From assembly GCA_964373955.1 (NCBI GenBank), contig CAYJXA010000001.1, positions 34,079 through 98,078 on the forward strand: a stretch of DNA of 64,000 nucleotides, read 5' to 3'. Made by a program: the position numbers and the translations under genes. Shown in pieces: positions 1,912-33,368 of the stretch. How positions within the stretch are numbered: position 1 is the stretch's first letter; every line of letters begins with the position of its first letter. Under the pieces are notes generated by a model. The model was not told the DNA's origin. It saw only the letters and a list, made by a program, of their open reading frames with translations, and searched no databases. The stretch comes from an uncultured Methanosarcinales archaeon (lineage in GTDB: Archaea > Nanobdellota > Nanobdellia > Woesearchaeales > GW2011-AR9).

Positions 1912-3087
1912 CTATACGCTGCCTGCCTGCTGTTTCAACAAATCTGCTTTATCGGCCTTCTCCCAGGTAAAATCAGGATCATTTCTGCCAAAGTGCCCAT
2001 AGGCCGCAGTTTTCTTATAGATCGGTCTCCGTAGGTTTAATTGCTCAATGATTGCCTTAGGACGGAAATCAAAATTCTTGCGGATGATCTCTACAATTTT
2101 CTCTTCAGGTATTTTACTGGTGCCGAAGGTGTTTACTAAAATGCTTACTGGTTGAGCTACACCGATAGCATAGGCCACTTGTATCTCGCATTTCTCTGCT
2201 AATCCCGCAGCAACGATATTCTTAGCTACATAGCGAGCATAGTAGGCAGCGGAACGGTCTACTTTCGTCGGATCTTTGCCGCTAAAGGCCCCGCCGCCAT
2301 GCCTAGAATATCCACCATAAGTGTCAACGATAATTTTTCTTCCGGTACAGCCGGCATCTCCAACTGGACCCCCGATCACAAATTTTCCCGTGGGGTTGAT
2401 GAAATATTTTGTCTGGGCATCAATCCACTCATGGCAGATGGGTTTGACAATTTTCTCAATCATATCTCTGCGAATAGTTTCTAAATCAACATCAGGATGA
2501 TGCTGGGTGGAAATAACAACGGTATCCACTCTCTTTGGTTTTCCATTTTGATATTCTACCGTCACCTGTGATTTTCCATCTGGACGCAAATACCATACTT
2601 CACCCCGCTTTCGAGCACTCGCTAAACGTTGGGTTAACTTATGGGCGAGAATTATTGGCAAAGGCATGTATTCCGGGGTTTCATTGGTGGCAAATCCAAA
2701 CATTAAGCCTTGATCTCCAGCTCCCTGCTCTTTGAATAATCCCTCCCCTTCATTGACTCCCTGTGCAATATCGGGGGATTGCCCGGAAAGTGCAACTAAA
2801 ACTCCACAAGTGCTACCTTCAAACCCATATTCTGGTTTGTCATAGCCTATTTCTAAGATGGTGTCACGAGCGATTTTCTGCACATCGACATAGGTGTTCG
2901 TGGTTACTTCTCCTCCAACGACGACAAAGCCCGTTTTTGTTAAACATTCTATAGCCACACGAGCGTGGGGGTCATCTTTGTAAATTGCATCTAAGATGCC
3001 ATCACTAATCTGGTCACAAATTTTATCGGGGTGCCCTTCGGTCACACTCTCTGAAGTAAATAAAAAATTTTCTTTGTTATCTGACAT
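1912..3087 (-). CDS. metK: S-adenosylmethionine synthetase (bacterial/eukaryal MetK type)
   Basis: [13 protein letters not shown] and [19 protein letters not shown] match the MetK signatures. The likely start is the internal Met (MSDNK...), not the ORF-track start. Confidence 0.95.
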
Positions 3088-3170
3088 GGTATTCGCCTCC
3101 GAGTTGATTAATAGAAAGGCCACCTAAAAGCTATATAAAATCTTGTGACAAGAATATTCTAATTGGAATA

Positions 3171-3740
3171 TTAAAATCCTAAGCCGCCGTTTACAAAAAG
3201 ACCAACGCCTCGTTCTTTTCCAACATAAAAATCTGCGCCGACCTGCGCTTGAAATGGCCATAGATTATACCCTAACCCTGCTTGCGGAGTCCAATACGTT
3301 TGCCCTTCTGAGATACCCATCCGAGCCGGCCCTGCTAGAATTTCCAAATTATGATCATTATTCTCTCCTAGAATTCGAATGCCGTTAGTCAGGCCAAATT
3401 CATAAAGATTTCTTTCTTCTCCAAAAAGACCGCGGAAAGATACTTCCGTTGAGAAAGGGACACGAACGCGCTCTGATCTAATCGCTCCTGTTTCAGACAA
3501 ATTCAAATGATAGCGCTGAAGGCAGGATTCTGATCGTAAGCCAAATTTAAATCCATGGAGAGCGTTATTGAGAGAAGAATCTAGTGTCGTAGAGCCAGCG
3601 TATCCCACTACTGTGTTTACATTTGTGATGGTAGCCTCAACAAATCTCTCGACGTGCTCTTCAGAGACGACTGAACTAGAGGCAACAGCACAGCTAGACA
3701 AGTACAATGCTGCTAAAACTGAACGAAAATGCGAGATCAT
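3171..3740 (-). CDS. secreted beta-rich protein with signal peptide and C-terminal aromatic residue
   Basis: N-terminal hydrophobic signal peptide; Gly/aromatic-rich sequence ending in GGLGF; sits in the GC-rich island and overlaps the upstream gene (ATGA). Confidence 0.5.
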   Translation of the reverse strand: MISHFRSVLAALYLSSCAVASSSVVSEEHVERFVEATITNVNTVVGYAGSTTLDSSLNNALHGFKFGLRSESCLQRYHLNLSETGAIRSERVRVPFSTEVSFRGLFGEERNLYEFGLTNGIRILGENNDHNLEILAGPARMGISEGQTYWTPQAGLGYNLWPFQAQVGADFYVGKERGVGLFVNGGLGF

Positions 3741-4909
3741 TTTGTTCTGTCCCCCTTACGAAGAGCTGGTTTCGTTTCTTTATCTTGCAAAGAACAGGAA
3801 GGAGGAATACTATCCTCAAACTTTCGCCGCGCAGAAGCCTTCCCTTGTGCTAAATCCATCGCATCTTGGTAGGTAAATCGTGCATAGTGCGTTCTCCTGT
3901 CGGCGCTGCGAACTTTCAGGGCAAAAAAATATTTTAATATTTCAGCTCCTCGCACTCCTGGAAAATCATCTCCGGCGTGATAAAGTTCAATAAACGGCCC
4001 TGAACCTTCTTCCCCTAAACGACGTAGAGTAGTTGATGTATAGCCTTTGTGCTGGCGAAGGAAATTCTCAAATGCCCCCATAACAGCAAAGTAATCCCTT
4101 CCAGAAGCAGCTGCAGCTGAATTCATCCCTTGATAAATATTCGGTCCGAGTACAATTTCAAGCCGATTTACTGGTAAACACTCCCCTACACGATAGCGCT
4201 GTGGAGACTCTTGCTGCTCAGAAGGTATTTCTACTGCAGGTTCGCATGCAGGTGCAGGAGGGCAAACACAATCGCTATTCTTCACCGGTGGAGTAGCTGG
4301 TGCTGCCGGCACTCTTCCATCTATCAACGCTTCACACGAAGGAGGGATAGCCGCTTCAAGAGTTTGCCTGTTTACACCAAGATTTGTACCTTGACCAATT
4401 GAAGATTGCATTGCTACTGTGTCTTTTAAAACATCCCGTCCAGCAATATCGACAATACTCACATCAAATCCAGATTCGCCCCGGCGATCAATCCAGTCGA
4501 AAACTATTCTTGGAACTCTATTTTCACCTACCGAAACGGATGGTCTTCCTCCCCGATACTCCCAGAAAGATCTCCCCTCTACTCCTTGGTAGCCTTTCCT
4601 AGTCAACAGATCCCCTAGAAATCGTGAAAAATTTTCCCCTAGAACAGTAAGACTATAACTCCCCGCATTACTATCGTAATGAAACTGTAGTTCCTGAGCA
4701 TCCAAACACATTTGCCCCTGTTCAGCTCTGATTAACGGTGAGCGAGTATCCACCCAGGGTTCTGCCTTTGCAGTGCTCGCATAAAACATTCCTGCTGCTA
4801 ATACTCCTGCCACCAATCCTGTTCCAGTAATTTCAGTAGTGAACACTTTTCCAAGGTAAGGAACTCTGCTCACAGTTTCATTCAATTTTTCTCGTAGTGT
4901 TGATATCAT
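3737..4909 (-). CDS. membrane-anchored hypothetical protein with Pro/Cys-rich linker
   Basis: N-terminal TM segment; a PPAPACEP Cys/Pro-rich stretch; GC-rich codon usage; translationally coupled to the neighbouring genes. Confidence 0.5.
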   Translation of the reverse strand: MISTLREKLNETVSRVPYLGKVFTTEITGTGLVAGVLAAGMFYASTAKAEPWVDTRSPLIRAEQGQMCLDAQELQFHYDSNAGSYSLTVLGENFSRFLGDLLTRKGYQGVEGRSFWEYRGGRPSVSVGENRVPRIVFDWIDRRGESGFDVSIVDIAGRDVLKDTVAMQSSIGQGTNLGVNRQTLEAAIPPSCEALIDGRVPAAPATPPVKNSDCVCPPAPACEPAVEIPSEQQESPQRYRVGECLPVNRLEIVLGPNIYQGMNSAAAASGRDYFAVMGAFENFLRQHKGYTSTTLRRLGEEGSGPFIELYHAGDDFPGVRGAEILKYFFALKVRSADRRTHYARFTYQDAMDLAQGKASARRKFEDSIPPSCSLQDKETKPALRKGDRTK

Positions 4910-4921
4910 TTTTATTTCCTC

Positions 4922-6646
4922 CTATCGTGCTTGTTGATATATCGGTTCTAACAACTCGTCTGCTTCTTTCAACGTTCCAAAGAAACCAAATTCTTTTAGA
5001 GTTTCCAGCACATCGAGAGTTCTTTGATTAAATTTTCCCTGCAATAATTGTACCTCGATCCGGCCACCTTGTTGTAGAACATCTTCCGCATGTGTTGCAA
5101 CATACTCATTTACATTTGAACATCCATAAGGCCTGACACAAGAATAACGAGGTTCTTCCGAACCATCCCGCCAGGTTTTTCCCAATCTTTCTGCATCCCG
5201 AACGACATCAGTTTTAACTTCCTTATTCTCAATATGAGGAGAGAGTTTCCCCACCAACTGCTGCCGTTTTCGTGTTGGAAGATGATCCATCCAGGCATGG
5301 GCTAATTCGTGAGGCAAAGAATAGCCGTCATTTGCCTGCAATGCAATAATATTACTATCGTTGAGGTAACAGGCTGCAGACCGTTGGGATTTACACAGTT
5401 GCTTGAGCTGCGCTTCATCCGTGTACAAGTACAACCCTAACTTCGGAGCCAGCTCTTTGTAGTTAGAAGGAAGTTTTCCTACCGCTTGTTTAAGTTTCCC
5501 AAGCAGATCATTCAAATCCCGCGGATCAGTAACGGAGGTTTTGATTTTATCTACATTAAATAAAGGATCACGGAGATGAGGATATGCCTCAAAGAGGAGC
5601 GCATTTGCTGGATCTTTCAACAAAGCAGCATAACTGCTGGAGGCTTCAATTGATCTCTCAAATTTTTGTTCCAACGCAGATAACCGTTCACGCTGCTCCT
5701 GTCGCAAACGTTCCTGCCGCTGTGCTTCTGTTTGTTGCCGTTGCCATTCCTCCCTTCTTCGTCGTTGTAATTCTTCAACCTCGCTTCGCCGTTGTTCTTC
5801 CAATCGTTGCTGTTCTTCCAGACGTGCACGTGCTTCTGCAATTTCCGTACCTACCTGTGCTTGCTTAGCTTTAATTTCAGCCTGATGATCCTGCAACCAG
5901 ACGTCAACACCATATTTTCTCTTGGCAAGTTCTGCAATTTTGAATAATCTTATTAAATCAGAGAATTCAGCGGTAATGGCTTCCTTTGCTCCCGGTTTGA
6001 GATATTTTTCAAACGGAACGTCGAGCGTAAATTTATCTCCGGTTTGAGTGAGAGTAAGAACTTCATGTCGATAGTAGTAAGAAGGAAGAGTATCATTGTA
6101 CAAAGAAGCCTCTCTTTGGAAGGTGGTGGAAACGTCTATGCTATCTATTTGTAACACTGTTTGCGTATCATTCTTGACATAGTAAAATCTTGCCTGACTA
6201 TTATCACTTCGAGAGGAATATTCCATTCGTTCTTCTAACCCCGACACAGTACTTTTCAGAAAAAAACGAAAACCACTTCCCCTAAAATCCCACTCATCAG
6301 TTCTCCCGACGCATTGAGTCAAACAAAAGTTATCCGCATTTTGCTGTGTGAATTCAGGGATTACACAAGTTGCTCTGTTCTTAGGATCAGGCGTGTTTAA
6401 AGGAACAAGATACGCAGTTCGAATTACATCTACTATTTTCTGTTTCAATGATTTCGCTTTTTCCGGAAATAATTGTTGTGCTTCTTTCTGCTGTTGTTCA
6501 AGCACACTTCCGGACAATAATTCGTCTAACGTAGCTGTAGGTGAAACTACTTCTTGCTGCTCAGGATATTGTACATCGGTAGCTGGACGTATTGCGCATC
6601 CCTGTAAGAAAGCTGCGAGAGCAATTCCTCGAAGAAAAGATATCAT
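4922..6646 (-). CDS. putative lipoprotein with coiled-coil region and HExxH zinc-metallopeptidase-like motif
   Basis: Lipobox-like LQGC after an N-terminal hydrophobic segment. A long R/E/Q-rich coiled coil is present. The HELAHAWMDH motif is zincin-like. Confidence 0.55.
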   Translation of the reverse strand: MISFLRGIALAAFLQGCAIRPATDVQYPEQQEVVSPTATLDELLSGSVLEQQQKEAQQLFPEKAKSLKQKIVDVIRTAYLVPLNTPDPKNRATCVIPEFTQQNADNFCLTQCVGRTDEWDFRGSGFRFFLKSTVSGLEERMEYSSRSDNSQARFYYVKNDTQTVLQIDSIDVSTTFQREASLYNDTLPSYYYRHEVLTLTQTGDKFTLDVPFEKYLKPGAKEAITAEFSDLIRLFKIAELAKRKYGVDVWLQDHQAEIKAKQAQVGTEIAEARARLEEQQRLEEQRRSEVEELQRRRREEWQRQQTEAQRQERLRQEQRERLSALEQKFERSIEASSSYAALLKDPANALLFEAYPHLRDPLFNVDKIKTSVTDPRDLNDLLGKLKQAVGKLPSNYKELAPKLGLYLYTDEAQLKQLCKSQRSAACYLNDSNIIALQANDGYSLPHELAHAWMDHLPTRKRQQLVGKLSPHIENKEVKTDVVRDAERLGKTWRDGSEEPRYSCVRPYGCSNVNEYVATHAEDVLQQGGRIEVQLLQGKFNQRTLDVLETLKEFGFFGTLKEADELLEPIYQQAR

Positions 6647-8274
6647 GATCTCATCCCCTCAATTAATCCATCTGGGTCAAAGACCAAGTTATCATAGCCG
6701 GACTGGAGCGCAAACTCTTTCACGAATTTTTTTAATTCTCCCCGTAACGGAGCAAGATTTTCCTTCCTCATTTCATCATAGTAGGAACAGCGTCCAGCAG
6801 GGTGATCACCATGTATCCACACCGAACCTACTACCTCCATTTTTGTTCCGCTAGCAGCATACACTGAAACAAATTGGTGGTCAGCATCTGATAAAACTCT
6901 GGCAACGGCAGAAGACCCCTCTCGATACCAATCATTGATTTCTTTCTCTCTATCAATCAATGCGTTCATCACTTGAATCAAACTTCGTTCTACCGTAAAG
7001 AGATACCTTCTTCCCTCAATATCAACTTCTTTGCTCATTTCACCGGAAGTGTAGAATTTCCGCTGGGCATCACTTTGCACTGACTCTAAGACCGCTCCAG
7101 ATCGCTGCAATCTCTTCTCCAGGATCTCTTGTTTTAAAGCATCGAAGAGTAATTTATATCCACGCTGAGAAGCAAGTTCCTCCACGACTGCAGGCCAATA
7201 TTGTTCATCAATAAGATGAATTTTTCTTGCTCCCTCTTCTAAGACGGCGTTCGCAAATTGATCATACCCCTGAGTAGATCCTAAAACGGCATTAACGATT
7301 TTCCGAGAAAATTTTTTCTTTTCTTCAGCTGACCTTTCAACATAGCGTGCCTGTTCTATTGCCTGTAAATACCACCATTTTGGGGTTAGTTCAGGGCTGT
7401 GGCAGGGAATATATCTTTGCTCACCAGTTAACATCTGTGTTATCCAGTTAGCATCATGATTGTCATGTTCAATTGAGCGCGGAGTATAATACTCAAAAGC
7501 GTTAATAATCCCTGAATGCTCTGCTTGCACCAGGAATACCGCTAATCTTCGTGACTGCACTGACTCTGGTCCTTTGCGCATGGCTTCATGGAATAATTGG
7601 CGGACTCCCTCATCCTGAAATAATAATGCGTAGCGATCATCGTTTCTAACTAGGGTAAGAACTTCTTTATATTGAGCGGTAGATCTTACGACAAATGCAG
7701 GTGTTTTGTGTTGCAAGCGCTGTGCAGTAATTCTACGGATATTATCTGGATCTGCTTCAATCTTGACATCGTAGCCCAGAACAACGTCCAGCGTTTCATG
7801 TCTCCCCACCATGGTGCGAAAAACACGTTCCAAAAATGTTCGTCCATCTTCATCTCGGAAAAATTCCCGGATAAACCAATGCCGAAGTGTTGAACTTGCA
7901 TTGTAAAGCTGAGCTAGTTTTGAAATTTCGGTAATATAATCTTCGACCTCGGGAGCGTCCTCCAGGTCAAATTTGAGGCTGCCATCCAAGCGGAGTTCTG
8001 ACCCCTGCTCTTCTACTTCAAAGCAATGCTTAGGCCATAAATATTGATTTACAAAACCTCTCTTAAAATGGGAAGAAGTTACATATTCCCGCAAGACTTG
8101 TTGCGCGAGAGCTTTCACGGGAGAATGGTCAAAATGCTGCTTTCCTCGTCGAGGAAGACTATCTCCGATTCCCCAAGCCCAAGCAAAAGTATCGTGGGCA
8201 TGCAACCCTTCAAATAGGCGATGCACTCGGCGAGTCAAGCATTCCTGTTCTCTATCTTTCATGGCAGCCATCAT
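6643..8274 (-). CDS. large hypothetical protein (first gene of the GC-rich four-gene operon)
   Basis: 543-aa ORF that overlaps the downstream gene by 4 nt; I recognise no family motif. Confidence 0.5.
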   Translation of the reverse strand: MMAAMKDREQECLTRRVHRLFEGLHAHDTFAWAWGIGDSLPRRGKQHFDHSPVKALAQQVLREYVTSSHFKRGFVNQYLWPKHCFEVEEQGSELRLDGSLKFDLEDAPEVEDYITEISKLAQLYNASSTLRHWFIREFFRDEDGRTFLERVFRTMVGRHETLDVVLGYDVKIEADPDNIRRITAQRLQHKTPAFVVRSTAQYKEVLTLVRNDDRYALLFQDEGVRQLFHEAMRKGPESVQSRRLAVFLVQAEHSGIINAFEYYTPRSIEHDNHDANWITQMLTGEQRYIPCHSPELTPKWWYLQAIEQARYVERSAEEKKKFSRKIVNAVLGSTQGYDQFANAVLEEGARKIHLIDEQYWPAVVEELASQRGYKLLFDALKQEILEKRLQRSGAVLESVQSDAQRKFYTSGEMSKEVDIEGRRYLFTVERSLIQVMNALIDREKEINDWYREGSSAVARVLSDADHQFVSVYAASGTKMEVVGSVWIHGDHPAGRCSYYDEMRKENLAPLRGELKKFVKEFALQSGYDNLVFDPDGLIEGMRS

Positions 8275-8376
8275 TGTAGTTTATCGTAATTTTCCCCCGC
8301 CCCAATTATCACTTCTAAGTAATTCAAAACCAAAAGATTTATATTTAATGGATATATTTTATATTAAAAATATAAA

Positions 8377-9276
8377 ATGAAACGAAAACTCATCAAACAA
8401 GGAGTGGGAGGATTAACCCTCTGCGTCCCTAAACAATGGACTGAAAAGCATAATCTCAAAGCGGGAGATGAGATTATCTTAACAGAGGAACAAGAGAAAT
8501 TAATCCTCACTACTGAAAGCAAACCTGCCCGCGTGAGAAAAGAGCTGGTTATTGATGAGCATTCCTATGAATTCATGACGAGACTGCTTACGAATGCCTA
8601 CAAGAAGGGGGTTGATGAATTAAAGTTAAAATTCAAGAGAGATATACCCTTAGAAATCATTAACAAAGCGTTATCTACCTTAACCATAGGATACGAAATC
8701 ACGGAAGTGGGTAAGGATTATTGTATCATCCAAAGTTTCAGCGCAGAACAGGAAGAGAATATCGCTGTTTCCATTCGGAAATGTTTTTTCCTTATTAAAG
8801 AGATGCAAGAAGTTATTCAGGAAGAGATTGAATATAAAAAGGGAGAGGCAAGAGATAGAATAAAAGCGCTTAATGAAAATGTGCGTAAATTGACCAATTA
8901 TGCGATAAGGACCACTTCCAAAACCATACACGACAATAATATTGTCCAGTATAATACTCTCATTTTTTCTAATTTATATCTTTATTCTATTAAATTAACC
9001 TACATCTATCAAAAAGTGGGAGAAGACAAGAGAATAGGGATAAACACCCGTGAGATTATGAATAATCTTTTTGCGCTATTTGACCTTTTTTATGAGATGT
9101 ACTATAACCAACAATTGCCATCTGCTCACCAATTTCTCCAGCGAAAAGAACAGTTGGTAAAAAAAATCGATGCTGCTGTCGACAAAGGCAACGGAAAGAT
9201 TTTACTGCAAATATCCATGGCTCTGCGCTGCCTGCATGATTCTATCGGTGCAATGATTGGATTAATTATAAAGTAA
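8377..9276 (+). CDS. AbrB/SpoVT-domain plus PhoU-like transcriptional regulator
   Basis: The N-terminus MKRKLIKQGVGGLTLCVPKQW...GDEI is an AbrB/MazE swapped-hairpin motif. The remainder is helical and PhoU-like, an architecture common in archaea. Confidence 0.6.
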   Translation: MKRKLIKQGVGGLTLCVPKQWTEKHNLKAGDEIILTEEQEKLILTTESKPARVRKELVIDEHSYEFMTRLLTNAYKKGVDELKLKFKRDIPLEIINKALSTLTIGYEITEVGKDYCIIQSFSAEQEENIAVSIRKCFFLIKEMQEVIQEEIEYKKGEARDRIKALNENVRKLTNYAIRTTSKTIHDNNIVQYNTLIFSNLYLYSIKLTYIYQKVGEDKRIGINTREIMNNLFALFDLFYEMYYNQQLPSAHQFLQRKEQLVKKIDAAVDKGNGKILLQISMALRCLHDSIGAMIGLIIK

Positions 9277-11014
9277 GAGCATATTCTCGGCTAACTGCTT
9301 CTCTAAGCGCTGGAACTCCCTCCGGAGAGAGCTTCCCTGCATGCAGTTCAATAGTTTGGAGATCCAATCGCATTACGCGTTGAGCTTGCTCAGCCGTATA
9401 TCTACTGCCCGTCATATCAAAGACATATTTGAGATGAGCAAGGTGTTTATAGATAGCTGCGGCATGGTAACCAAGAATAAAGAAGCTGGTTGCATCAATT
9501 CTTGAATCAGCGTAGTGCTTAGGTAATTCTCTTTTTTCAAGGTAGTCTATAACCAACGCTTCCTGTTCCTCAAGAGTCAAGCCCAAAGAGTGATAGGAAT
9601 ATAATTTAGCTAAGTCTTCCTGTGGAGCACCAAACCCTACAAACTCATCTTCAAAGTCCGTTAAAATTATTTTTCCTTTTCGAGGATTGATTAGTACATT
9701 CCGTGGGCGAGGATCACCATGGATAAAAGAAGGAGCCAGCAGGGCCATTTGGGTAAGCAGAGCTGAGATAATGTACTGCTCATTGTACACGAAATTTAGG
9801 TCTCCATCCGCTCTAAATAGGGTATAGCTTTTCTGTTCATAATCGATGCCTTTTGGTTCACCATCGTCAGTATAAAACCGTGAGCGCAATACTTCTGCAT
9901 CTTTACGCATATCTCTAGTATCATCAAGAGAGAAAGAAAGTGATGAATCGGCATAGCGAAGATCTTGCTCTCCCTGTTCAGCCATATTTTGCAACACCCG
10001 TAACACACCAAGGTTAGGCAGACCTTGTAAATGCAACTGAAGTAGGGTGTCATTCATGCTTTGAAGGACGGCGCTTTTGTATTCAGGTGACTGTTGAATA
10101 AATTCATCCAACGTCTGCACTTCAGCAGCAAAGGGAGTCACTAGAGCATACTTGCAGCTAATCATCCTGTTTCCTTTTGGGAGGATGACTTCCGCAGCCA
10201 AATCAACACTTTGTGCCCTTCCTACTGATGCTAAAGGACTGGTTCCCCCGAGATAATGGTTTAAGCAAGCTTCAAAATCGCGTTGTTCTTTCTGCTCAGC
10301 GGAATAAAATTTGATAAAAGCATCCAAAGGCAATTTAGGAGATGTTGATGTAGAAAGATCACGCTGAAATAAGCGTACCCTCGCATTCACCTTTCTTGAA
10401 TCTTCATCAACTACCTCTTCTAGTATAATATGCCGGCAAAAATCACCTGTTCTTACCGAAGTAAGTAGTGGTTCTGCACGATCTCCCAACTGTTGCTTCA
10501 GCAAAAAGGGATTATCTAAGAGCTGTTGCATCAAGTCTGTATATTCAATTGCAGAGATATCTCGTTCCTCTTTTGTACGAGCACGTTTAAGAACATTTTT
10601 CCCATCAAGTTCGAGGAGAAGATTCTGCACTACCCCTTGAGAAGTTTCATCAAGTTCCAAAGGATCGATACCAAAAAATTCCTGAGCAGCTATTCTTACT
10701 TTATACTCATCGGGCAAAGCCCTCATCATCCCAATATATTCCCAGGTTCTTCGAGGATCGCTAAGGATGGAGGTAAATACTCTTACGGCTTCTTCATAAA
10801 TTCCTTGCTGGGGTTGATATAACCTTCCTGGAGTCAACCGGATCCAAGAAGCGTCGGGAGAAGAAGTTGGGCTAACCCAGGATGCTGGCGGAGGATCTGC
10901 TACTTTATCCATGGCCGCAAAGTATAACCGCATCCAGACGTGTTCTTGGGGAGTAAAATTACCAAAAAGCTTTTCTCGCAAGTGTTCCCGATTTGGATCA
11001 GAAGCGGAACTCAT
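9266..11014 (-). CDS. large protein with C-terminal protein-kinase-like (APH/choline-kinase fold) domain
   Basis: IHGDPRPRNVLI is an HGD catalytic-loop-like motif. ILTDFEDEF is DFG-like. The locus is GC-rich. Confidence 0.5.
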   Translation of the reverse strand: MSSASDPNREHLREKLFGNFTPQEHVWMRLYFAAMDKVADPPPASWVSPTSSPDASWIRLTPGRLYQPQQGIYEEAVRVFTSILSDPRRTWEYIGMMRALPDEYKVRIAAQEFFGIDPLELDETSQGVVQNLLLELDGKNVLKRARTKEERDISAIEYTDLMQQLLDNPFLLKQQLGDRAEPLLTSVRTGDFCRHIILEEVVDEDSRKVNARVRLFQRDLSTSTSPKLPLDAFIKFYSAEQKEQRDFEACLNHYLGGTSPLASVGRAQSVDLAAEVILPKGNRMISCKYALVTPFAAEVQTLDEFIQQSPEYKSAVLQSMNDTLLQLHLQGLPNLGVLRVLQNMAEQGEQDLRYADSSLSFSLDDTRDMRKDAEVLRSRFYTDDGEPKGIDYEQKSYTLFRADGDLNFVYNEQYIISALLTQMALLAPSFIHGDPRPRNVLINPRKGKIILTDFEDEFVGFGAPQEDLAKLYSYHSLGLTLEEQEALVIDYLEKRELPKHYADSRIDATSFFILGYHAAAIYKHLAHLKYVFDMTGSRYTAEQAQRVMRLDLQTIELHAGKLSPEGVPALREAVSREYALTL

Positions 11015-11291
11015 TTCCTTTCCTCCAAAAACGTCTTGATGGCTTCTTCAACCAGATGTGATTTATTCCGAAAGGAACTTTCTCTGGCGAAGGCTCTTAT
11101 CTTCTGTACTAATTCCTCGTCAATAGATATGGTAAAGACTTGTTTCATGCTGGGGTAACAAAAATTATTAGTACTATATAAACCTTTTCGTCAGTTACTA
11201 CTATTAAGAGGTATTTTTATTATTCTGCACGGAATAAATACCTTTTAATAATATTCTTTCATAGAAAATCTTATTAATAAGCCAAATTCTT

Positions 11292-11855
11292 ATGGTTCTT
11301 ATGACCGTCCGTACTTTGGAAGAGATCAAGAAACTCCGCAAGAAATTCCATCTGAATCAGAAAGAACTAGCAGAAAAAGCGAGTGTATCCCAAAGCCTTA
11401 TCGCTAAAATTGAGGCAGGAAAAATAGATCCTTCCTTTACCAAAGCCCAGCAAATCTTTGAAGCTTTAGATCAACTTCGAGAGCAGGAAGAAGTGAAAGC
11501 AAAACAATTGATGAATGATAAAGTCTTTTTTACCAAGCGGCATGAGCCAATTAAAGAGGTTATTAAAGCCATGAAAACTAAAGGAATTTCCCAAATGCCC
11601 GTATTGGAAAGAGAACGAGTCGTGGGAATCATTTCAGAGGGAACTATTCTTAACAAAATTGCCGAAAACCCGCATAAAGTAGCTTCATTGAAGGCAGACG
11701 AAGTGATGGAAGAAGCCCCCCCCATTGTTTCCCTGAATACCGGATTGAAAACATTATTAGAATTATTACGGGAGTATCCGATTGTACTAGTAGCAGAGAA
11801 AGGAGATATTAAAGGAATTATTTCCAAGAGTGATGTGCTGGAGAGGGTAGAATGA
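11292..11855 (+). CDS. XRE-type HTH plus tandem CBS domain regulator
   Basis: The N-terminus LNQKELAEKASVSQSLIAKIE is an XRE-type HTH. The C-terminal part has the CBS-pair pattern. Confidence 0.7.
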   Translation: MVLMTVRTLEEIKKLRKKFHLNQKELAEKASVSQSLIAKIEAGKIDPSFTKAQQIFEALDQLREQEEVKAKQLMNDKVFFTKRHEPIKEVIKAMKTKGISQMPVLERERVVGIISEGTILNKIAENPHKVASLKADEVMEEAPPIVSLNTGLKTLLELLREYPIVLVAEKGDIKGIISKSDVLERVE

Positions 11856-12496
11856 GAGAAATGGGATCAATCCTTCGTGATGATGTGGAATACGCAATTC
11901 ATTGTGATGAGAAAGGCAGAATTATAGGCCCTATTTCCAAGAAGCATGCGCATCTTCCGGGAGTTCGCCAAGCCCTAACCCATTACTCAACCTGGTCCAT
12001 GATTTTTCATGCAGAATCTGGAAAATATGGTCTTCAACGGAAGAATCCAAAGAAACACGATAAGTTTGGAGCAGGAAAATGGGATATGGGGGTGGCTGGT
12101 CATAATTGTTATATCAAAGATAAAGAAGAGTACCGGCCCATGAACTTTAAGGAAACGTTACTCAAAGAAGCGTCCGAAGAAATCGGATTACCTCTGGAAG
12201 TTATTGATTCGTTAGAAGAATTTACCAAACGATTAAAGGATAAAATAAAGAAGCCAATCGCAATTTTCATTGAAAAATTTCATTATCAAACGGAGCGAAA
12301 TAATGAATTTGTGGGGCTTGCCTTTATCGTGACCCCAACTACCAAGCTAAAATTCAAAGACAAAGAAGTCGTTGATTTTAGATGGCTAACCCCACAGGAG
12401 CTAGAGCACTATCTCAGGACTGAGAAAAATTATTGTGACCCATTGCCACTCGTTTTTGAGAAGGTTGAAAAGTTCAGAAAGAAATATCTTCATTAA
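11852..12496 (+). CDS. Nudix-family hydrolase
   Basis: ETLLKEASEEIGL resembles the Nudix box Gx5Ex7REUxEExGU. The start overlaps the upstream stop codon. Confidence 0.5.
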   Translation: MREMGSILRDDVEYAIHCDEKGRIIGPISKKHAHLPGVRQALTHYSTWSMIFHAESGKYGLQRKNPKKHDKFGAGKWDMGVAGHNCYIKDKEEYRPMNFKETLLKEASEEIGLPLEVIDSLEEFTKRLKDKIKKPIAIFIEKFHYQTERNNEFVGLAFIVTPTTKLKFKDKEVVDFRWLTPQELEHYLRTEKNYCDPLPLVFEKVEKFRKKYLH

Positions 12497-12526
12497 ATGC
12501 TTAAGAGAACTGGGGAAATTGCCTTA

Positions 12527-13396
12527 TCAATCCTTACTCGCCTGAAACGCTAAAATATCATCCATGCTTAATTTTTTCCCTTTCTTTAATTTCTCCTGAA
12601 CTTCAGCGGTTTTCTCTTTCACTTTGGTCTTAAAACTCTTCTCTTCTTCCGCCTGAAATAATTTGGAAAGTTCAGTATAGCGAGCTTGTATTTCATCAGC
12701 TTTTTTCTTCAATTCTTCCATCTGCGATCGAAGCTGCTGATGCTTTTCCGCTAAAGGTTTTTCAGATTCACGAAGCTTTTTAATCTCATCATACAAATGC
12801 CGGATTTCCTCATGCTTCGCCTGGGATTCATGGGCAAGCTGCTGCACATTTTGATGATGCTCGTTTGCCAATCGTCTAGTTTCCGAGAAATCAGCGGAGG
12901 CAGAATTAACTTCTTTCCATGCTGCACCCAACTCTTCCACTTTTTTATACAATGATTTTAATTCTTTGATTTTCTTGGTAAGCTGCTGCTCCTTCTCAAA
13001 GGGCATCACTTCGGTTTCTATTTTCTTTTCCAGAGCGGTAATCTGCGCTTTTATCTTTCGGGGATCTTCTTTAACATCTAATTTTTGAAGCAATTCTTCT
13101 TTCTTTTGTTCTACTTCTTTTCGTTCACTGGCTTTTTCTTTGACAGCTTGATTTAATTTATCCCGCTCTTCTTTAAGCGCTTTTACGGTAGACGTTTGCT
13201 GGTTACGCTCCTCCCGCAACTTTTTAACCCGGTCATTCCGGCCTTTAATCTGGCTGTGGATCTTCTTTAACTCCTGAAAAACGTTCTCCTTTTCAGTATG
13301 CAAAGAATGAAGCTGATTCTTCAAGAGGGACAATTCCTTCCTCTTTTCATAAAATTCTTTCCGTTGTTCAGATAAATCTTGGTCTAATTGCTCCAT
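12527..13396 (-). CDS. conserved archaeal coiled-coil protein (COG1340-like)
   Basis: 289 aa, almost entirely heptad-repeat E/K/Q-rich sequence; in archaea such a gene commonly lies next to the L12 operon. Confidence 0.6.
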   Translation of the reverse strand: MEQLDQDLSEQRKEFYEKRKELSLLKNQLHSLHTEKENVFQELKKIHSQIKGRNDRVKKLREERNQQTSTVKALKEERDKLNQAVKEKASERKEVEQKKEELLQKLDVKEDPRKIKAQITALEKKIETEVMPFEKEQQLTKKIKELKSLYKKVEELGAAWKEVNSASADFSETRRLANEHHQNVQQLAHESQAKHEEIRHLYDEIKKLRESEKPLAEKHQQLRSQMEELKKKADEIQARYTELSKLFQAEEEKSFKTKVKEKTAEVQEKLKKGKKLSMDDILAFQASKD

Positions 13397-13444
13397 ACAC
13401 TCTCACTTTGTAAAACGAAAATAAAAGAGAAGAATAAAAAAGAA

Positions 13445-13759
13445 TTATCCAAACAAAGCTCCTAGCCCTGCGGCCGCAGCTTCGTCAGCTTTCTTTTGTT
13501 CTTCTTCTTTCGATTTTTCGCTCTTCTTTGCTTCTTTTTGAGCAGGCGCTCCACCGGCAGCAGCAACTGCTACGGGCGCAGCCACGGCTGCTTTCTTAAT
13601 TGCTTCGTCAATATCAACACCTTGTAAAGCAGCTACTAACGCTTTTACTCTGGTTTCTTCGACATTGACACCGGCAGCTTTAAGCACGGATTTAACCGCG
13701 TCTTCGGTGATTTGTTTCCCTGCTTTATGAAGCAGCATTGCAGCATAGATGTATTCCAT
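13445..13759 (-). CDS. rpl12: 50S ribosomal protein L12 (P1 stalk protein)
   Basis: [12 protein letters not shown]-terminus, an Ala-rich hinge, and an acidic tail ending GLGALFG. Confidence 0.9.
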
Positions 13760-20985: not shown

Positions 20986-21612
20986 TTAGTTAAGATTTAT
21001 TTTTTCTCCTAATTCTTCTGCTGTAAAAAGGAGGTGATTAAATAGTTTGCGTTCATAATCATATTGTTCCTGTTGTACGTCTTCCCAATTAATGTTTCTT
21101 TTCCGGATCCAATGCCCGTAGCGTTCATAAATGTAGTTCATGCGCTGAGCTAAAGGAACGACTTTATTTCCCAAGACTCGCCAATCAACATAATGGATAA
21201 ATCTGGTTTCTTCACTTACTTCCGCTTTAGGGTTTCTAGTTAATCCATCTAATTCCAGGAATAAGTGCGCAAATTCAGGGAATTCTTCTTTGAGCAGCAG
21301 GTAGGTAACGTATGTTTCGGAATGTCCTTTATATTGTTCCCGTAGTTTCTGATGCATTTGAACTTCGTCGGGGGTTGGTTGGTAATTGTAAGGGGGATCA
21401 GTGAGCCGTTCCAAGACCACCGCTTTCATGAAGTCGTGCAAGAGCGAGAAAGGAGCAATAACTTCTACTTTAATTGGATATCCTTCTCGTTGCAATTCTC
21501 CTGCGAGAAAGATCGCTACTTTGTGAACAGTTTTGCAATGTTCTTTGACTGTGCCTGGAACTTTATACTGCTCGAAGAGTTCCTGGCAATGCTGAAGGGT
21601 GGGGAGATTCAT
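20986..21612 (-). CDS. HD-domain phosphohydrolase
   Basis: H...H...LLHDFMK arrangement typical of HD metal-binding residues. Confidence 0.55.
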   Translation of the reverse strand: MNLPTLQHCQELFEQYKVPGTVKEHCKTVHKVAIFLAGELQREGYPIKVEVIAPFSLLHDFMKAVVLERLTDPPYNYQPTPDEVQMHQKLREQYKGHSETYVTYLLLKEEFPEFAHLFLELDGLTRNPKAEVSEETRFIHYVDWRVLGNKVVPLAQRMNYIYERYGHWIRKRNINWEDVQQEQYDYERKLFNHLLFTAEELGEKINLN

Positions 21613-22250
21613 GACAATAATTCCCTCCTAGCCCTTTCAATACTCTTAGGAACCATTTCTATTAATACATCTCTCAGACGTTGATAAGCTGGAAAAAGTT
21701 CACAGAAAGCTATTGGAAGTTTATTCATGCCGGCATACACGGGTAATACTTCTATCAGGGGCGTAGACGCTGCATCTTGGTACAGTTCCCGAACTAAAAG
21801 TTCCGGTCTTTTGGCTACTGGCAAGATTAAATGGACATCCTCTCTAACTCGCGTCGGCTGAAAACAAGGTCCCGCTATTCTTAATCCAATTTCTTCCAGA
21901 GCTTGATTTCGAGATTGTTCTTCAAAACTAGCCAGAGCATAGAAGCAGCTATTAACAGAGTCTACTCCCGCATGGACACCGAACAAGGCAATTTCTCCTG
22001 CTAAATGAAGAAGTTCTGGAATGGAATGTGCATACACGCCATTTTCAAGAGCGGAAGCGACAAAAGCAGCTTTAGTTTCTGGGGTGGCTTTTACTGTTCC
22101 ATCTGGAAATAATCCACACCCACTAGAAGAAACAGTAATTCTATCGGCTAGGCCTTGCTTGCGGATATAATCACTCGCAATTGCTTCGGCCATAGGGCTC
22201 CGTCCATTATTGCCGTAACAGACATATTCTATGTTAATATGTTGATTCAT
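21609..22250 (-). CDS. LMW protein-tyrosine-phosphatase / ArsC-like protein (paralog 1)
   Basis: CYGNNGRSPMAEAIA is a CX5R(S) P-loop, as in LMW-PTP and ArsC. The likely start is the internal Met; its ATG overlaps the upstream stop codon. Confidence 0.65.
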   Translation of the reverse strand: MNQHINIEYVCYGNNGRSPMAEAIASDYIRKQGLADRITVSSSGCGLFPDGTVKATPETKAAFVASALENGVYAHSIPELLHLAGEIALFGVHAGVDSVNSCFYALASFEEQSRNQALEEIGLRIAGPCFQPTRVREDVHLILPVAKRPELLVRELYQDAASTPLIEVLPVYAGMNKLPIAFCELFPAYQRLRDVLIEMVPKSIERARRELLS

Positions 22251-23554
22251 GATAATTTTCTCACTACTCCTTTCTCCGCATCTACCTCGACTTCCTCCCC
22301 TTCCTGTAACACTTTCGTGGCAATTTTTGTGCCAATAACACAAGGCTTTTTCATCTCCCGGCAGACAATCGCTGCATGAGACGTAACTCCCCCCAAATCT
22401 GTAACTACTGCGCCTGCTAATTTCATCACCGGAACATAATCCGGGGTGGTTTCAGAAACAACCAAGATGTCTCCAGGGTTCATTCGGTGAAAATCGTGAA
22501 CAGACTTAAGCAGCTTTACTTTTCCTTTGGCTTTGCCCAGTGAAGCCGGCATGCCTTTGATATGGTCTATTCCCGTTACTTTTACAGCTATATTTTCTTT
22601 TTCTCCCGCTAGTTCGTTCCCCACAAAAATATGTTCCTCGCCATCAATTACGATAATGCCAAACCCCTTCATTCGTTCTCGCAAGGTAGTTTGAGCTTGG
22701 AATTGTTTGTCTCTGATTTCTGTAAGAGTATGCTGCACCATCTCCTCAAAAGTTAATCCTTGCTGGCGAGCAAGCGTCTCAAACCAAGGCCAGAAGTGGA
22801 AGGCAATTTTGTTCAGGCTTTCGATGAAGTGAAAACGGAGAAATGCTAATCCCTCAGCCACTTTTAATTCCGGCCAGTGTAAATCTAGAGGTTTTATGTC
22901 CGCGTGCAAAGGAGGTTCAAAAGTGCGTAGTTCTTCTCTTACTTTTTCTTTGGAGAGCGGCGTTCCCCACATGACATTAATGGTGGTCCAGCTGTATTTT
23001 TGTAGGAAGGTTGAAATATCCTGTTCGGTGAGCTTGCCTTGTTGATGGAGCGAAGCAAGTTTGGCGAATTGCGCGTCTCGTTCCATGAATTCAAGCCCTT
23101 CATGTTTTATCTGTCCCAAAACAGGGTACAATTCAATACCTTCCTGGGCGCATTTTTCACGTAAAGCTTTGGTAATCCCTTCATCAATTTGGTGAATTAT
23201 TAACCAGTAACACATCATGAGGCGTAAGTTCTCTAAGAAGAGATGGAATGAACCTAGGGAAGAATAATCATATCGTGCGGTAAGAAATTCTTGCGCTGAT
23301 TTTTTTGCGTCGGAAATAAAGGTAAATAAGTATTCAAAATCTTTCTCTTTCATCTTTGCATAAAAAAATTGTTCTAAGGCATCCCAGCCTTCTTTATCCA
23401 TGAATACTTCTCCATCAACGACTTTATATCCTTCTTTTATCGCCGGGAGATTATGTTTTTTGAAGACATGCTGAGAGTAGTAATGAGCGAAGAGGGAGCT
23501 GGTTAAAGGGACTGATTCCCAATGTCCTAGATATCGCCAGGTTGTTTCTTTCAT
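22247..23554 (-). CDS. uncharacterized helical domain fused to C-terminal PEP-utilizing-enzyme mobile (phosphohistidine swivel) domain, paralog A
   Basis: The C-terminus GDILVVSETTPDYVPVMKLAGAVVTDLGGVTSHAAIVCREMKKPCVIG matches the swivel domain. The N-terminal part has no ATP-grasp (PPDK_N) motifs. Confidence 0.7.
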   Translation of the reverse strand: MKETTWRYLGHWESVPLTSSLFAHYYSQHVFKKHNLPAIKEGYKVVDGEVFMDKEGWDALEQFFYAKMKEKDFEYLFTFISDAKKSAQEFLTARYDYSSLGSFHLFLENLRLMMCYWLIIHQIDEGITKALREKCAQEGIELYPVLGQIKHEGLEFMERDAQFAKLASLHQQGKLTEQDISTFLQKYSWTTINVMWGTPLSKEKVREELRTFEPPLHADIKPLDLHWPELKVAEGLAFLRFHFIESLNKIAFHFWPWFETLARQQGLTFEEMVQHTLTEIRDKQFQAQTTLRERMKGFGIIVIDGEEHIFVGNELAGEKENIAVKVTGIDHIKGMPASLGKAKGKVKLLKSVHDFHRMNPGDILVVSETTPDYVPVMKLAGAVVTDLGGVTSHAAIVCREMKKPCVIGTKIATKVLQEGEEVEVDAEKGVVRKLS

Positions 23555-26051: not shown

Positions 26052-26711
26052 TTAACCTAGTAATTCTCTGACAGCTCTATCTACCGTTCTTGGAACTGCA
26101 ATCCGCAAATGATCTCGTGCAGCTCGATATTCCGGAAGCAATCTGCAGAAAGGATTTGGTACATCTCCTTCCATCCCAGCGTATTCATTGAGAAGGGCAA
26201 TAGTTGGAGTATACCCAGAACCAGCGTATATTTGTCGAACTTGGTCTAGATTAGCTTTTGCCATAGCTAAGACGACATGTTGATCATCACTTCCATGAAG
26301 CATTGTAGGCCGATGATATTCGCGAGTAGCAACCAAACCTGCTTCCATCAATACTTGATCTCGAAATATTGCCTCTGCGCGAACCACATAATCAAATAAT
26401 TCTTGCACTAACTCTGGATCAGTTCCATGGCCCTGACCCTCCGCTAAGACTGCGGCAGCCTGATCTCTTCTCCACGATTCTTGATACACTCCGTTTGCAG
26501 CCGCCATTCGTACTATTTGCAGTTGTGCTTGAGTTTTCTCAGCTCCTTCTCTGAGGAACATTGGATGTAATCCGCTTCCACTCGAACGAACTCGCACTCT
26601 GTCCGCTAAGCCTTGTCGATGAACGTAGTCAGTAGCGATTGCCTCTGCTTGAGGACTTCTGCCATTATTCCCGGTACATACATATTCTAACGTCAAAAAA
26701 TTTTCAGTCAT
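26052..26711 (-). CDS. LMW-PTP / ArsC-like protein (paralog 2)
   Basis: CTGNNGRSPQAEAIA is a CX5R P-loop. It is clearly paralogous to the ORF at 21609-22250. Confidence 0.65.
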   Translation of the reverse strand: MTENFLTLEYVCTGNNGRSPQAEAIATDYVHRQGLADRVRVRSSGSGLHPMFLREGAEKTQAQLQIVRMAAANGVYQESWRRDQAAAVLAEGQGHGTDPELVQELFDYVVRAEAIFRDQVLMEAGLVATREYHRPTMLHGSDDQHVVLAMAKANLDQVRQIYAGSGYTPTIALLNEYAGMEGDVPNPFCRLLPEYRAARDHLRIAVPRTVDRAVRELLG

Positions 26712-26713
26712 TT

Positions 26714-27505
26714 TTATTTTCCTCCTTGTTGCATTCTTTCCATCATCCTCTGCACTGCCTGATCATGCAAATAACCTGCTTGCGTTTCCGTTAATCTTTC
26801 CCTTCCCATCATCGCTGCGCTAACTGCAAGCATAAAGTTATTCATTGACTCTTGCATTTGCATATTGCGAACATGATTTGGAAGGGCCATTTCCGTGCAT
26901 GCTTTCTCTCCACATACCAATATCCCCGGGCTAAACCCTATAAATGTGGGCTCAGGATAGGTGAAATGTTTTCTCTCAACATCACCGCCAAGCTTATACG
27001 GAGGAACTTTCCCGCAAAAACCACACAATTCACCACGCTCATTATCATCTCCATCCAGTATAAACCTTTGGTTAACGATTACTAATCCCCCCCGTTGCCC
27101 TGGCGATAATCGAGCAATATCTTCCAGGGGAATTGTGCCAACTGTTCCTTTAGTAGTTTCATACTTGACACGACACCCATCTATTGGGGAGCCTTCTCCT
27201 CCAATCTCCGGAAGGTGATAGATTGGTCGAGGGGTAACTCCGTGCCTTTCTCTGTACTCTCGCAAAGATTGATTAAATTCTGGAAGCGCTCTACGAAGTT
27301 GAGCGATGATATATTCATCAGCCCATCTCTGTAGCCTATGTAGACCCCGCCCAGAGTAGCGTCTGGTGTCCCAACGATTATTCAAGTTGAGGACTCTTTT
27401 TCGCTTATCCAACACCATTTTATATTCAGGACTACACCAGAGAGCTGCATTTCGAGCCATCATCGCATCCAAAGTAGCATTCCCGGTAGGTTCGTCTTTA
27501 AACAT
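26714..27505 (-). CDS. hypothetical protein (first gene of cluster 1)
   Basis: 263 aa in the same orientation and tightly packed with the cluster; includes CGFCGK and CGEKAC Cys pairs. Confidence 0.45.
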   Translation of the reverse strand: MFKDEPTGNATLDAMMARNAALWCSPEYKMVLDKRKRVLNLNNRWDTRRYSGRGLHRLQRWADEYIIAQLRRALPEFNQSLREYRERHGVTPRPIYHLPEIGGEGSPIDGCRVKYETTKGTVGTIPLEDIARLSPGQRGGLVIVNQRFILDGDDNERGELCGFCGKVPPYKLGGDVERKHFTYPEPTFIGFSPGILVCGEKACTEMALPNHVRNMQMQESMNNFMLAVSAAMMGRERLTETQAGYLHDQAVQRMMERMQQGGK

Positions 27506-30536: not shown

Positions 30537-31070
30537 ATGGACAGATTACGCTTTGATCAAATAATCGGACCGACTCAAGAATGGGTTGTCACTGCATTCC
30601 AAGAATGGCAGAAAGATAGTGCGGGATTTGACGGCAGAGTTTCTGCAGGGTGGGGAAAGGAGATTATGGGAACATTTCTCCGTGAATTTCCCGATGATTT
30701 TGAAGGAGGACTTAACTACAGACGAAATGGGGGAGACTGTTACTTACTCCTTGAAGGACAGGAAGATCGAGGCACTTTAATGGGTCAAACGCAAGGATGC
30801 TATCTAGAACTGGAAGGAGAATTGCGTAGAGGTCGACCAAATCCTGGCTTCTTTAGGATCACAGCAGGGTACAGTGGGCTTTGCTCAGCTATTCAAGAAA
30901 TAGAAAAGGATCCCCACCAACTAGATCAACTTTTATTAGATGTATGTGGTTGGGGAATTAGGCAGCCCGAGCATGCCAATTTATTTGCTGGCATGGGCAG
31001 ATTATATGTTAGCACTCCCGAGAGTACAAGAAAATATTCGTTTACTCCTAGTGCGAGATTGTGTTATTAA
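30537..31070 (+). CDS. hypothetical protein
   Basis: 177-aa ORF with GC-richer codon usage; no recognised motif. Confidence 0.4.
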   Translation: MDRLRFDQIIGPTQEWVVTAFQEWQKDSAGFDGRVSAGWGKEIMGTFLREFPDDFEGGLNYRRNGGDCYLLLEGQEDRGTLMGQTQGCYLELEGELRRGRPNPGFFRITAGYSGLCSAIQEIEKDPHQLDQLLLDVCGWGIRQPEHANLFAGMGRLYVSTPESTRKYSFTPSARLCY

Positions 31071-33276: not shown

Positions 33277-33280
33277 AAAG

Positions 33281-33368
33281 CGCCCCGGACCAGATTTGAA
33301 CTGGTGACCTGATGGTTAACAGCCATCCGCTTTGGTTGATTATTCTCTAACCGCTGAGCCACCGGGGC
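33281..33368 (-). tRNA. tRNA-Asn (anticodon GTT) with a roughly 15-nt non-canonical insertion (putative intron) between the D-arm and the anticodon stem
   Basis: Hand-folded. Acceptor stem GCCCCGG/CCGGGGC. D-arm GCTC-AGCGGTTA-GAG(C). Anticodon arm GATGG-CTGTTAA-CCATC. T-arm ACCAG-TTCAAAT-CTGGT. Discriminator G. The extra AATAATCAACCAAAG interrupts the 3' side of the D-stem. Confidence 0.8.

Follow-up and report, generated by a model that had tools for sequence, protein, structure and literature searches.

Organization of the operon

The window analysed here is a 64,000-nucleotide stretch of contig CAYJXA010000001.1 (assembly GCA_964373955.1) from an uncultured archaeon, and the subject of this report is a four-gene operon near its left end, together with the accessory island in which the operon lies. 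The four genes, here called p543, p574, p390 and p189 and transcribed in that order, form a translationally coupled operon (Table 1). The start and stop codons of p543/p574 and of p390/p189 overlap as ATGA (positions 6643-6646 and 3737-3740), the gap between p574 and p390 is 12 nucleotides, GGAGG/GGGG-type motifs lie 8 to 11 nucleotides on the 5' side of each downstream start, and all three downstream genes open with ATG-AT(A/C)-TC (Met-Ile-Ser). A first-pass annotation of the window had described four minus-strand genes with 4-nucleotide overlaps at two junctions and had called them a translationally coupled operon; the open reading frames (ORFs) and their ATGA overlaps are as described, and coupling can be read directly at the junctions. 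Three of the four products carry predicted export or anchor signals, and p543 is predicted to be cytoplasmic. A scan for sigma-70 promoters and terminators, which is unsuited to an archaeon, gave counts not above those in shuffled sequence.

Table 1. Features of the locus, numbered from the first nucleotide of the window.
Feature	Coordinates	Strand	Description
metK, left island border	1912-3123	-	TIGR01034, E 1e-179
p189	3171-3740	-	189-aa ORF
p390	3737-4909	-	390-aa ORF
p574	4922-6646	-	574-aa ORF
p543	6643-8274	-	543-aa ORF, first gene of the operon
Divergent intergenic region p543/p299	8275-8376	.	102 bp, AT-rich; putative promoters of both genes
p299	8377-9276	+	AbrB/SpoVT (MazE-like) domain plus helical domain of ~250 aa; Pfam MazE_antitoxin
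p582	9266-11014	-	APH/choline-kinase-like phosphotransferase fold; Pfam APH, E 9.6e-09
Ribbon-helix-helix (RHH) gene	11011-11148	-	45 aa; Pfam RHH_3, E 8.6e-07; RHH_1, E 3.6e-06
Helix-turn-helix (HTH)-CBS gene, right island border	11292-11855	+	Pfam HTH_3 plus CBS

Neither as single sequences nor as family profiles did the four operon proteins match anything in Pfam, NCBIfam, PHROGs, PADLOC or the sequences of the Protein Data Bank (PDB), and the locus contributes at least four protein families that these collections lack. At 90% identity each of the four proteins forms a cluster of its own, and all come from one 298-kb NCBI contig. HMMER, run exhaustively over 1.84 billion representatives, yielded only five relatives of p543, and p189 has three relatives at 54-63% identity. 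Among 5.8 billion proteins p574 retrieved only itself, in a search that scored just the 8,000 candidates with the largest number of shared words; we suspect that matches to its repetitive charged helix took many of these places. A pattern scan for the p543 family in the species representatives of GTDB found none, and also missed the genome of the window itself. The BLAST and profile searches proposed in the first-pass annotation thus returned neither bacterial homologues nor known families, but only a few relatives, of which those with informative neighbours adjoin archaeal genes.

Predicted properties of the operon products

The smallest product, p189, is a small beta-rich predicted lipoprotein. 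Its N-terminus is MISHFRSVLAALYLSSC, with the lipobox LSSC (Cys17), and its last residue is Phe. A lipobox was called where [LVI][ASTVI][GAS]C ends a signal peptide and the Cys is conserved, as in the p189 family, whose four sequences have LSSC, VSGC, LSGC and MSGC and share an invariant Cys and an invariant terminal Phe. About ten segments of p189 show the period-2 hydrophobic alternation that is also found in an OmpX control, a pattern equally compatible with soluble beta proteins. The signal sequence, beta-rich character and terminal Phe noticed at first reading are present, whereas the suggested likeness to outer-membrane barrel families is not reflected in any profile: Pfam gave no match to any of the four family members at E <= 10, the family profile found no outer-membrane protein (OMP) in PDB, and hhalign of the family with Escherichia coli OmpX gave a probability of 0.2%, the locally aligned piece being the first hairpin.

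The product of p390 has, as first noticed, a membrane anchor and a Pro/Cys-rich linker: it possesses one hydrophobic segment (residues 27-45), either transmembrane or a signal-anchor, preceded by a conserved N-terminal cytoplasmic motif and followed by two domains, each bracketed by Cys (C...IPPSC), with a CVCPPAPAC linker. Members of the p390 family occur at loci L001, L002, L089, L090, L091 and L144, and their alignment preserves the N-terminal motif and membrane segment, a domain bracketed by C...IPPxC, and a CPPxPxC motif. The CPPCPPC / CVCPPAPAC element (residues 212-222 of p390; relatives in L090, L091 and L002) resembles an immunoglobulin hinge, and single-domain members of the family terminate right past it. 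This hinge-like motif could permit extracellular inter-chain disulfide dimerisation.

The product of p574 is a mosaic: a beta-rich N-terminal domain (residues ~35-250) is followed by a helix (252-333), and the C-terminal alpha/beta domain is an orphan. Its N-terminus is MISFLRGIALAAFLQGC, and its signal sequence ends in LQGC (Cys17); this lipobox-like element of the first-pass annotation is present, with a departure from the canonical lipobox at position -2, and an L-Q-A-C of the same kind occurs in an island protein of L086. The N-terminal domain is homologous to a 245-aa ORF of L002 (E 1.6e-27, 35% identity). A run of N in the L002 assembly (~1700-1950) breaks the 5' end of a gene of this p574-N family and masks its true N-terminus. 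Kinship of the domain with a family of 353-391 aa (L001, L002 and L088; shared 'AKRKYGVD') was considered and rejected at an hhalign probability of 0.8%.

The central helix of p574 spans 82 residues, is rich in Glu, Arg and Gln, and is the only part for which a single-sequence model (predicted local distance difference test, pLDDT, 43 overall) is usable, with mean pLDDT of 80-89 per 10-residue block in its core. Because 46% of its residues are charged and occupancy of heptad positions a and d is only 0.35, a charged stalk made of one helix seems a better description than a canonical coiled coil. The R/E/Q-rich coiled coil of about 80 aa that had been proposed is thus correct in extent and charge, but its low heptad occupancy fits a coiled coil poorly.

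The C-terminal domain of p574 does contain the HELAHAWMDH motif on which its description as a zincin was based (residues 446-455), with HELAH (446-450) in a predicted helix after predicted strand-helix-strand-strand elements. HExxH also arises by chance in ~0.9% of shuffled p574 sequences and is found in 5 of the 57 long ORFs of the window. No Pfam model, peptidase families included, matched the domain at E <= 10, and no relative of it was found anywhere searched; a word-indexed search with the domain alone also found nothing, but this is a weak negative since the parent protein was missed too. The domain is a single orphan sequence with a model of pLDDT < 50, so that its fold and a third zinc ligand cannot be read, the motif is unverifiable, and protease activity of p574 is unsupported. 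A 442-aa lipobox protein of L086 carries HELGHHIDESIP; its likeness to p574 is confined to the motif (BLASTP E 2.2), and kinship between the two was rejected.

The remaining product, p543, contains no hydrophobic 19-mer and consists of a helical N-terminal and middle region followed by a conserved C-terminal domain of ~110 aa. An AlphaFold model of residues 197-543, built from a six-sequence alignment, reached pLDDT 68.7 and a predicted template modelling score (pTM) of 0.69, and its C-terminal domain, after the helical region, has the element order b-b-a-a-b-b-b-a-b. In a Foldseek search of PDB the top 50 matches to this model were all GNAT acetyltransferases (E 5e-3 to 9e-2, TM-score 0.4-0.5), and matches in a viral structure library were mostly GNATs too. 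No acetyltransferase model of Pfam or NCBIfam matched p543 at E <= 1. The residues F468, G483, D500, E501, R511 and G526 are invariant in the family, yet of the acetyl-CoA pyrophosphate loop Q/R-x-x-G-x-G/A only R511 is invariant (L-x-P-L-R-x-x-L), the Gly positions varying over the seven family members (PLRGEL, PLRTEL, PLRASL, DVREAV and others). Because the Foldseek scores are weak and the loop is reduced to one Arg, the C-terminal domain is best described as GNAT-like in predicted fold, of uncertain catalysis, and it may not be catalytic.

The accessory island and its relatives

The operon is part of an accessory block of ~8.1 kb (3124-11291) between metK and the HTH-CBS gene. In the nearest other Woesearchaeota loci, the latter gene is directly beside metK (L006, L008 and L009) or separated from it by one extra gene (L005 and L007), and none of L005-L009 contains a homologue of any island protein. 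Because metK and HTH-CBS adjoin in relatives that lack the island genes, the island is an insertion, a conclusion that derives from synteny and not from composition. The interval assigned to the operon at first reading (3171-8274) therefore misses p299, p582 and the RHH gene (8377-11148), which accompany the operon elsewhere.

The same families recur in conserved order in a handful of related uncultured genomes (L001, L002, L086 and L088-L091). L001 has a p582-like gene, p299 on the opposite strand, and then members of the p543, p390 and 353-aa families; L002 has two p543-family genes, followed by members of the p574-N and p390 families, a 139-aa ORF, a member of the 353/391-aa family, and metK. 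In L088/L089 the order is p390 family, p189 family, 373-aa family, metK, a 139-aa gene and the gene for ribosomal protein S17e, matching the flank of the window, and in L090 it is p543 family, two small ORFs, p390 family, p189 family and metK. The island thus adjoins metK in the window, L002, L088/L089 and L090. In L086 a p582-like and a p299-like gene precede a run of 18 or more unannotated genes on one strand, midway along which lies a p543-family gene; by eye, the N-termini of 14 of 18 contain a signal sequence or a transmembrane segment, and 5 show a lipobox. The L086 run (2226-13544; near-identical in L087) includes the 442-aa lipobox protein mentioned above and internal paralogue pairs (2226/3008 and 5536/10400), and represents the island in greatly enlarged form.

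Flanking genes and island genes differ sharply in their divergence. Between the window and L088, metK is 94% identical, the 139-aa protein 92% and S17e 92%, whereas p189 is 64% and the C-terminal half of p390 71% identical; between the window and L002, metK is 87% identical, whereas p390 and p543 are each 30% and the N-terminal domain of p574 35% identical. From these comparisons the island proteins appear to evolve far faster than the flanking genes, and gene content appears to turn over between genomes. The occupation of the same metK-side site in several diverged genomes points to vertical inheritance with divergence.

Upstream of the operon, and divergent from it, lies p299, which matches Pfam MazE_antitoxin (E 9e-06; score 26.0 bits, above the cutoff of 24.7) and, below the cutoff of that model, TIGR01439 (AbrB; E 4e-04). 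It is likely to be the regulator of the divergent operon; its C-terminal ~250 aa belong to no annotated family. The same divergent layout surrounds the putative promoter region in L001, L086, L094 and L144. The p299 of L001 shares 84% identity with that of the window and the p299 of L086 shares 46%, and the gene is always divergent from the operon; in L005-L009 it is not found beside metK. The p582 gene, whose product has HGDPRPRN and DFE motifs, converges on p299 with an 11-nucleotide 3' overlap. It has homologues beside p299 in L001, L086 and L094, that of L094 being 959 aa long. The RHH gene is ATGA-coupled to the p582 start, and this pair could be regulatory or toxin-antitoxin-like.

A general rule that regulators of the p299 type stand beside operons for exported proteins was dropped after a test of 70 metagenome loci with p299-like genes. 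The link between regulator and envelope is therefore limited to close relatives, of which L094 and L144 repeat the pattern of p299 plus an exported operon. In L094 (1-13779 of a 108-kb contig) two p299-like paralogues are each divergent from their own operon of unannotated genes, one of eight genes including membrane proteins and the other of three small proteins, two of them with a lipobox-like Cys.

Base composition and origin

The operon was previously thought to stand out as an island of about 50% G+C in surroundings of about 40%, but the measured values are 43.8% for the operon region and 41.6% for the remaining window. Individually the four genes have 42.5-45.6% G+C, compared with a mean of 41.7% (standard deviation 2.4%) for the 50 other ORFs, i.e. 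z scores of 0.3-1.7, and 12 of those 50 ORFs are at least equally GC-rich, the neighbouring metK (44.6%) among them. G+C at third codon positions (GC3) is 0.31-0.38 in the four genes, lower than the mean of 0.38, and the slight excess is confined to codon positions 1 and 2, where it is attributable to amino acid composition (few Lys and Ile, more Arg, Ala and Gly). Synonymous codon usage, scored as codon log-likelihood, is typical in three of the four genes. A GC island read by eye thus vanished once it was measured, and synteny still exposed a real accessory island, which is a lesson in method. About a quarter of the long ORFs of the window carry the same low-Lys, high-Arg, low-GC3 signature as the island genes, to which they are not related; they include 21609-22343, 26052-26711, 26714-27505, 30537-32206, 49271-50380, 51634-52272 and others. 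Two of these, 21609-22343 and 26052-26711, are paralogues with a CxGNxGRS motif and are low-molecular-weight phosphatase-like.

These measurements bear on the proposal that the operon is a protease or effector module recently acquired from bacteria, with p574 as a lipoprotein zincin, p189 as an outer-membrane-type barrel, and the other two products as partners. Several features could be read in this way: the HExxH motif follows predicted elements in a suitable order, the L086 variant of the island has its own lipobox protein with such a motif, p189 ends in Phe and has many amphipathic strands with a first hairpin that aligns locally to that of OmpX, and the adjoining metK is of bacterial type. 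However, the composition is ordinary; the searches turned up no homologue of any of the four proteins in bacteria, plasmids or phages; and those relatives with informative neighbours adjoin the same metK of archaeal lineage, S17e or AbrB-type genes. The peptidase and OMP profiles, the comparison with OmpX and the chance frequency of HExxH, all given above, also tell against it, and a lipobox on a transmembrane barrel would be an atypical pairing. We know of no outer membrane in Woesearchaeota. In the one DPANN envelope imaged by electron cryotomography in one study, that of Microcaldus ARM-1, a cytoplasmic membrane plus S-layer was seen (PMC11329633). Recent acquisition of such a module from bacteria is therefore very improbable. 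Of the horizontal acquisition proposed in the first-pass annotation, insertion relative to related genomes stands, and the arguments from composition, a donor lineage and mobility genes do not.

The island might instead be mobile, or a defence or toxin-antitoxin island in which p299, the RHH gene with its kinase, and p543 are addiction or defence modules and the exported proteins are cargo. In its favour, the genes on either side of the block are neighbours in relatives, gene content turns over between genomes, and type II toxin-antitoxin systems often contain RHH, MazE-like and GNAT-like folds, the RHH gene moreover being coupled to that of the kinase. We consider this reading rather improbable, however. 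No integrase, transposase or border tRNA was found at the island, nor, above 27 nucleotides, any att-like flanking repeats or any template and variable repeats of the kind that accompany diversity-generating retroelements, and PADLOC and PHROG scans gave no match. Searches of IMG/VR viral contigs, plasmids and phages found no relatives of the operon proteins, and an origin from a virus, plasmid or phage was rejected on these grounds. The same chromosomal site beside metK is occupied in several diverged genomes; p299 (299 aa) and p543 (543 aa) far exceed the size of antitoxins and GNAT toxins, and p543 has no adjacent RHH gene.

The host organism and other features of the window

The sequence indicates that the host is a DPANN archaeon of the Woesearchaeota/Nanoarchaeota type, because the window encodes S17e and an L10 with the archaeal/eukaryotic P0 insert domain, and because of the record titles of the closest metK relatives. 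The window also encodes L1. An archaeal host had been assumed at first reading, and the ribosomal proteins and metK relatives agree. The metK product itself is of the bacterial/eukaryotic type rather than the archaeal type (TIGR01034). Its closest relatives, at 78-85% identity, are in the metagenome-assembled archaeal genomes L005-L009, of which L006 is titled Candidatus Woesearchaeota, L008 Nanoarchaeota, and L005, L007 and L009 'uncultured Methanosarcinales archaeon', titles of the last kind being, we take it, automatic binning labels. The next relatives, and the nearest outside DPANN genomes, are those of Paenibacillus and Cohnella (65-67% identity), which suggests an old transfer of metK from a bacterium to DPANN archaea. 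L005 (metK 4713-5915) has an extra, very divergent metK-like gene directly upstream.

Elsewhere in the window there is only one tRNA gene (Leu-AAG, 33280-33368), and an Rfam scan of the 64 kb at gathering thresholds gave no match. At 58417-63591 on the minus strand three successive genes encode Lys-poor proteins of 340, 482 and 918 aa, each with a signal or transmembrane segment at its N-terminus. A Pfam search of the first and the third found no match; all three may be S-layer proteins or other large proteins of the cell surface. A 156-aa protein encoded at 46348-46818 on the plus strand has an N-terminal membrane segment, a HELYH motif and no Pfam match, and could be a small membrane-bound zincin.

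A putative envelope module

DPANN archaea live attached to other cells, and to our knowledge the proteins that mediate this contact are almost entirely unknown. The evidence leans, by a little more than an even chance, towards the operon being a lineage-specific, rapidly diversifying envelope module that faces the outside and probably functions in host contact or recognition. A fixed chromosomal site combined with divergence several times faster than that of the neighbouring genes is the pattern expected of surface molecules that meet a changing partner. Under this interpretation, p189 and p574 would be exported by the Sec pathway and anchored to lipid through Cys17 of each, and p390 would be held in the membrane by its N-terminal segment, with extracytoplasmic disulfides in the C...IPPxC and CPPxPxC motifs stabilising or dimerising it. 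The charged 82-residue helix of p574, ~12 nm long if fully helical, may hold the C-terminal domain off the membrane, towards or through the S-layer. From the cytoplasm, p543 may act on or with the exported proteins as a modifier or adaptor, and p299 would control the operon. Strong divergence and gene turnover suggest a partner that itself varies, and the module may therefore contact something variable, such as host-cell surfaces or viruses.

Several considerations weigh against this interpretation. Signal peptides and lipoboxes were called by rule rather than by SignalP or LipoP, and the Gln at position -2 of the p574 lipobox is outside the canonical set. The GNAT assignment of p543 comes from a medium-confidence model with weak Foldseek E-values, and the acetyl-CoA motif is not conserved. 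Over the 70 metagenome loci of the p299 family, the divergent operons show no enrichment in exported proteins (22% compared with 19%, p = 0.39). The roles given to the components are predictions; fast divergence could signify relaxed constraint rather than diversifying selection; and the tie of the module to a host is indirect.

A different function in the envelope, scavenging or maintenance, is also conceivable, with p189 as a small barrel that binds ligands and p390 and p574 as a scaffold for the capture of host lipids or metabolites by an archaeon whose own biosynthesis is reduced. DPANN cells rely on their hosts for metabolites (PMC11329633). Best conserved of the set, p189 is predicted to be lipid-anchored, and its 54-64% identity and many invariant polar residues would suit a binding or structural protein better than a variable antigen. 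Yet the operon includes no transporter or permease gene, p189 has no similarity to lipocalin, YceI or substrate-binding families, and the rapid divergence of the other members does not suit an uptake route that is conserved, which makes scavenging an unlikely, though not negligible, explanation.

A bolder version of the contact hypothesis is an apparatus of a DPANN episymbiont devoted to its host, in which the rigid ~12-nm helix of a lipid-anchored p574 would present a metalloprotease-like head past the S-layer, p390 would serve as a disulfide-linked membrane anchor, p189 would form a lipid-anchored OmpX-like barrel in or on the envelope of the partner, and p543 and the AbrB-type switch would exert control; we judge it very improbable. 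Whichever function applies, the locus offers a compact candidate set for cell contact, comprising three predicted exported or anchored proteins, one partner with a GNAT-like fold and a dedicated regulator, and the conservation of p189 makes it a tractable target for studies of structure and localisation. Should p189 really form a beta-barrel in a membrane, an archaeon would possess a protein with the architecture of a bacterial OMP but with no detectable homology to any of them.

Comparison with known systems

Each component has a partial counterpart among known proteins. With minimal zincin metallopeptidases, p574 shares an HELAH in a predicted helix, a preceding strand-helix-strand-strand arrangement and predicted export; it differs in being a single orphan that matches no peptidase family at E <= 10. 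The C-terminal domain of p543 is predicted to have the same order of strands and helices as GNATs such as PatZ, YycN, PaiA and GCN5, but has no match to the Acetyltransf profile and is joined to a helical region of ~400 aa without known relatives. Like AbrB/SpoVT regulators that are divergent from their targets, p299 has an N-terminal swapped-hairpin domain, and it is divergent in every variant of the island.

The barrels of the OmpX/Ail/OmpA-N group (Pfam OMP_b-brl) are matched by p189 in size, in Gly/aromatic-rich amphipathic strands and in an invariant terminal Phe, and its first and last hairpins locally resemble those of OmpX; it has, however, a lipobox instead of a signal-peptidase-I signal, and no significant profile or hhalign match. 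No outer membrane or beta-barrel assembly (BAM) machinery is known to us in the archaeal host of p189. Another parallel is found in the lipoproteins of Haloferax volcanii that depend on AliA/AliB: the N-terminus of the p189 family likewise has a positively charged residue, a hydrophobic stretch and the sequence [LVM]-S-[SG]-C. A high prevalence of lipobox lipoproteins is predicted for DPANN genomes, in which AliA, the candidate lipidation enzyme, also occurs (PMC12462473). In comparison with archaeal lipobox lipoproteins generally, the LQGC of p574 deviates, the mature domains fall in no lipoprotein family described so far, and lipidation is here a prediction.

At the level of the whole module, the ~12 nm predicted for the p574 helix is comparable to the gap between the S-layers of a DPANN cell and its host, measured at 11-16 nm (PMC11329633). 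The locus would work in the manner of the accessory surface-protein clusters of symbionts, with the difference that its families are undescribed and that it brings together lipobox proteins, a cytoplasmic partner of GNAT-like fold and a regulator of the AbrB type.

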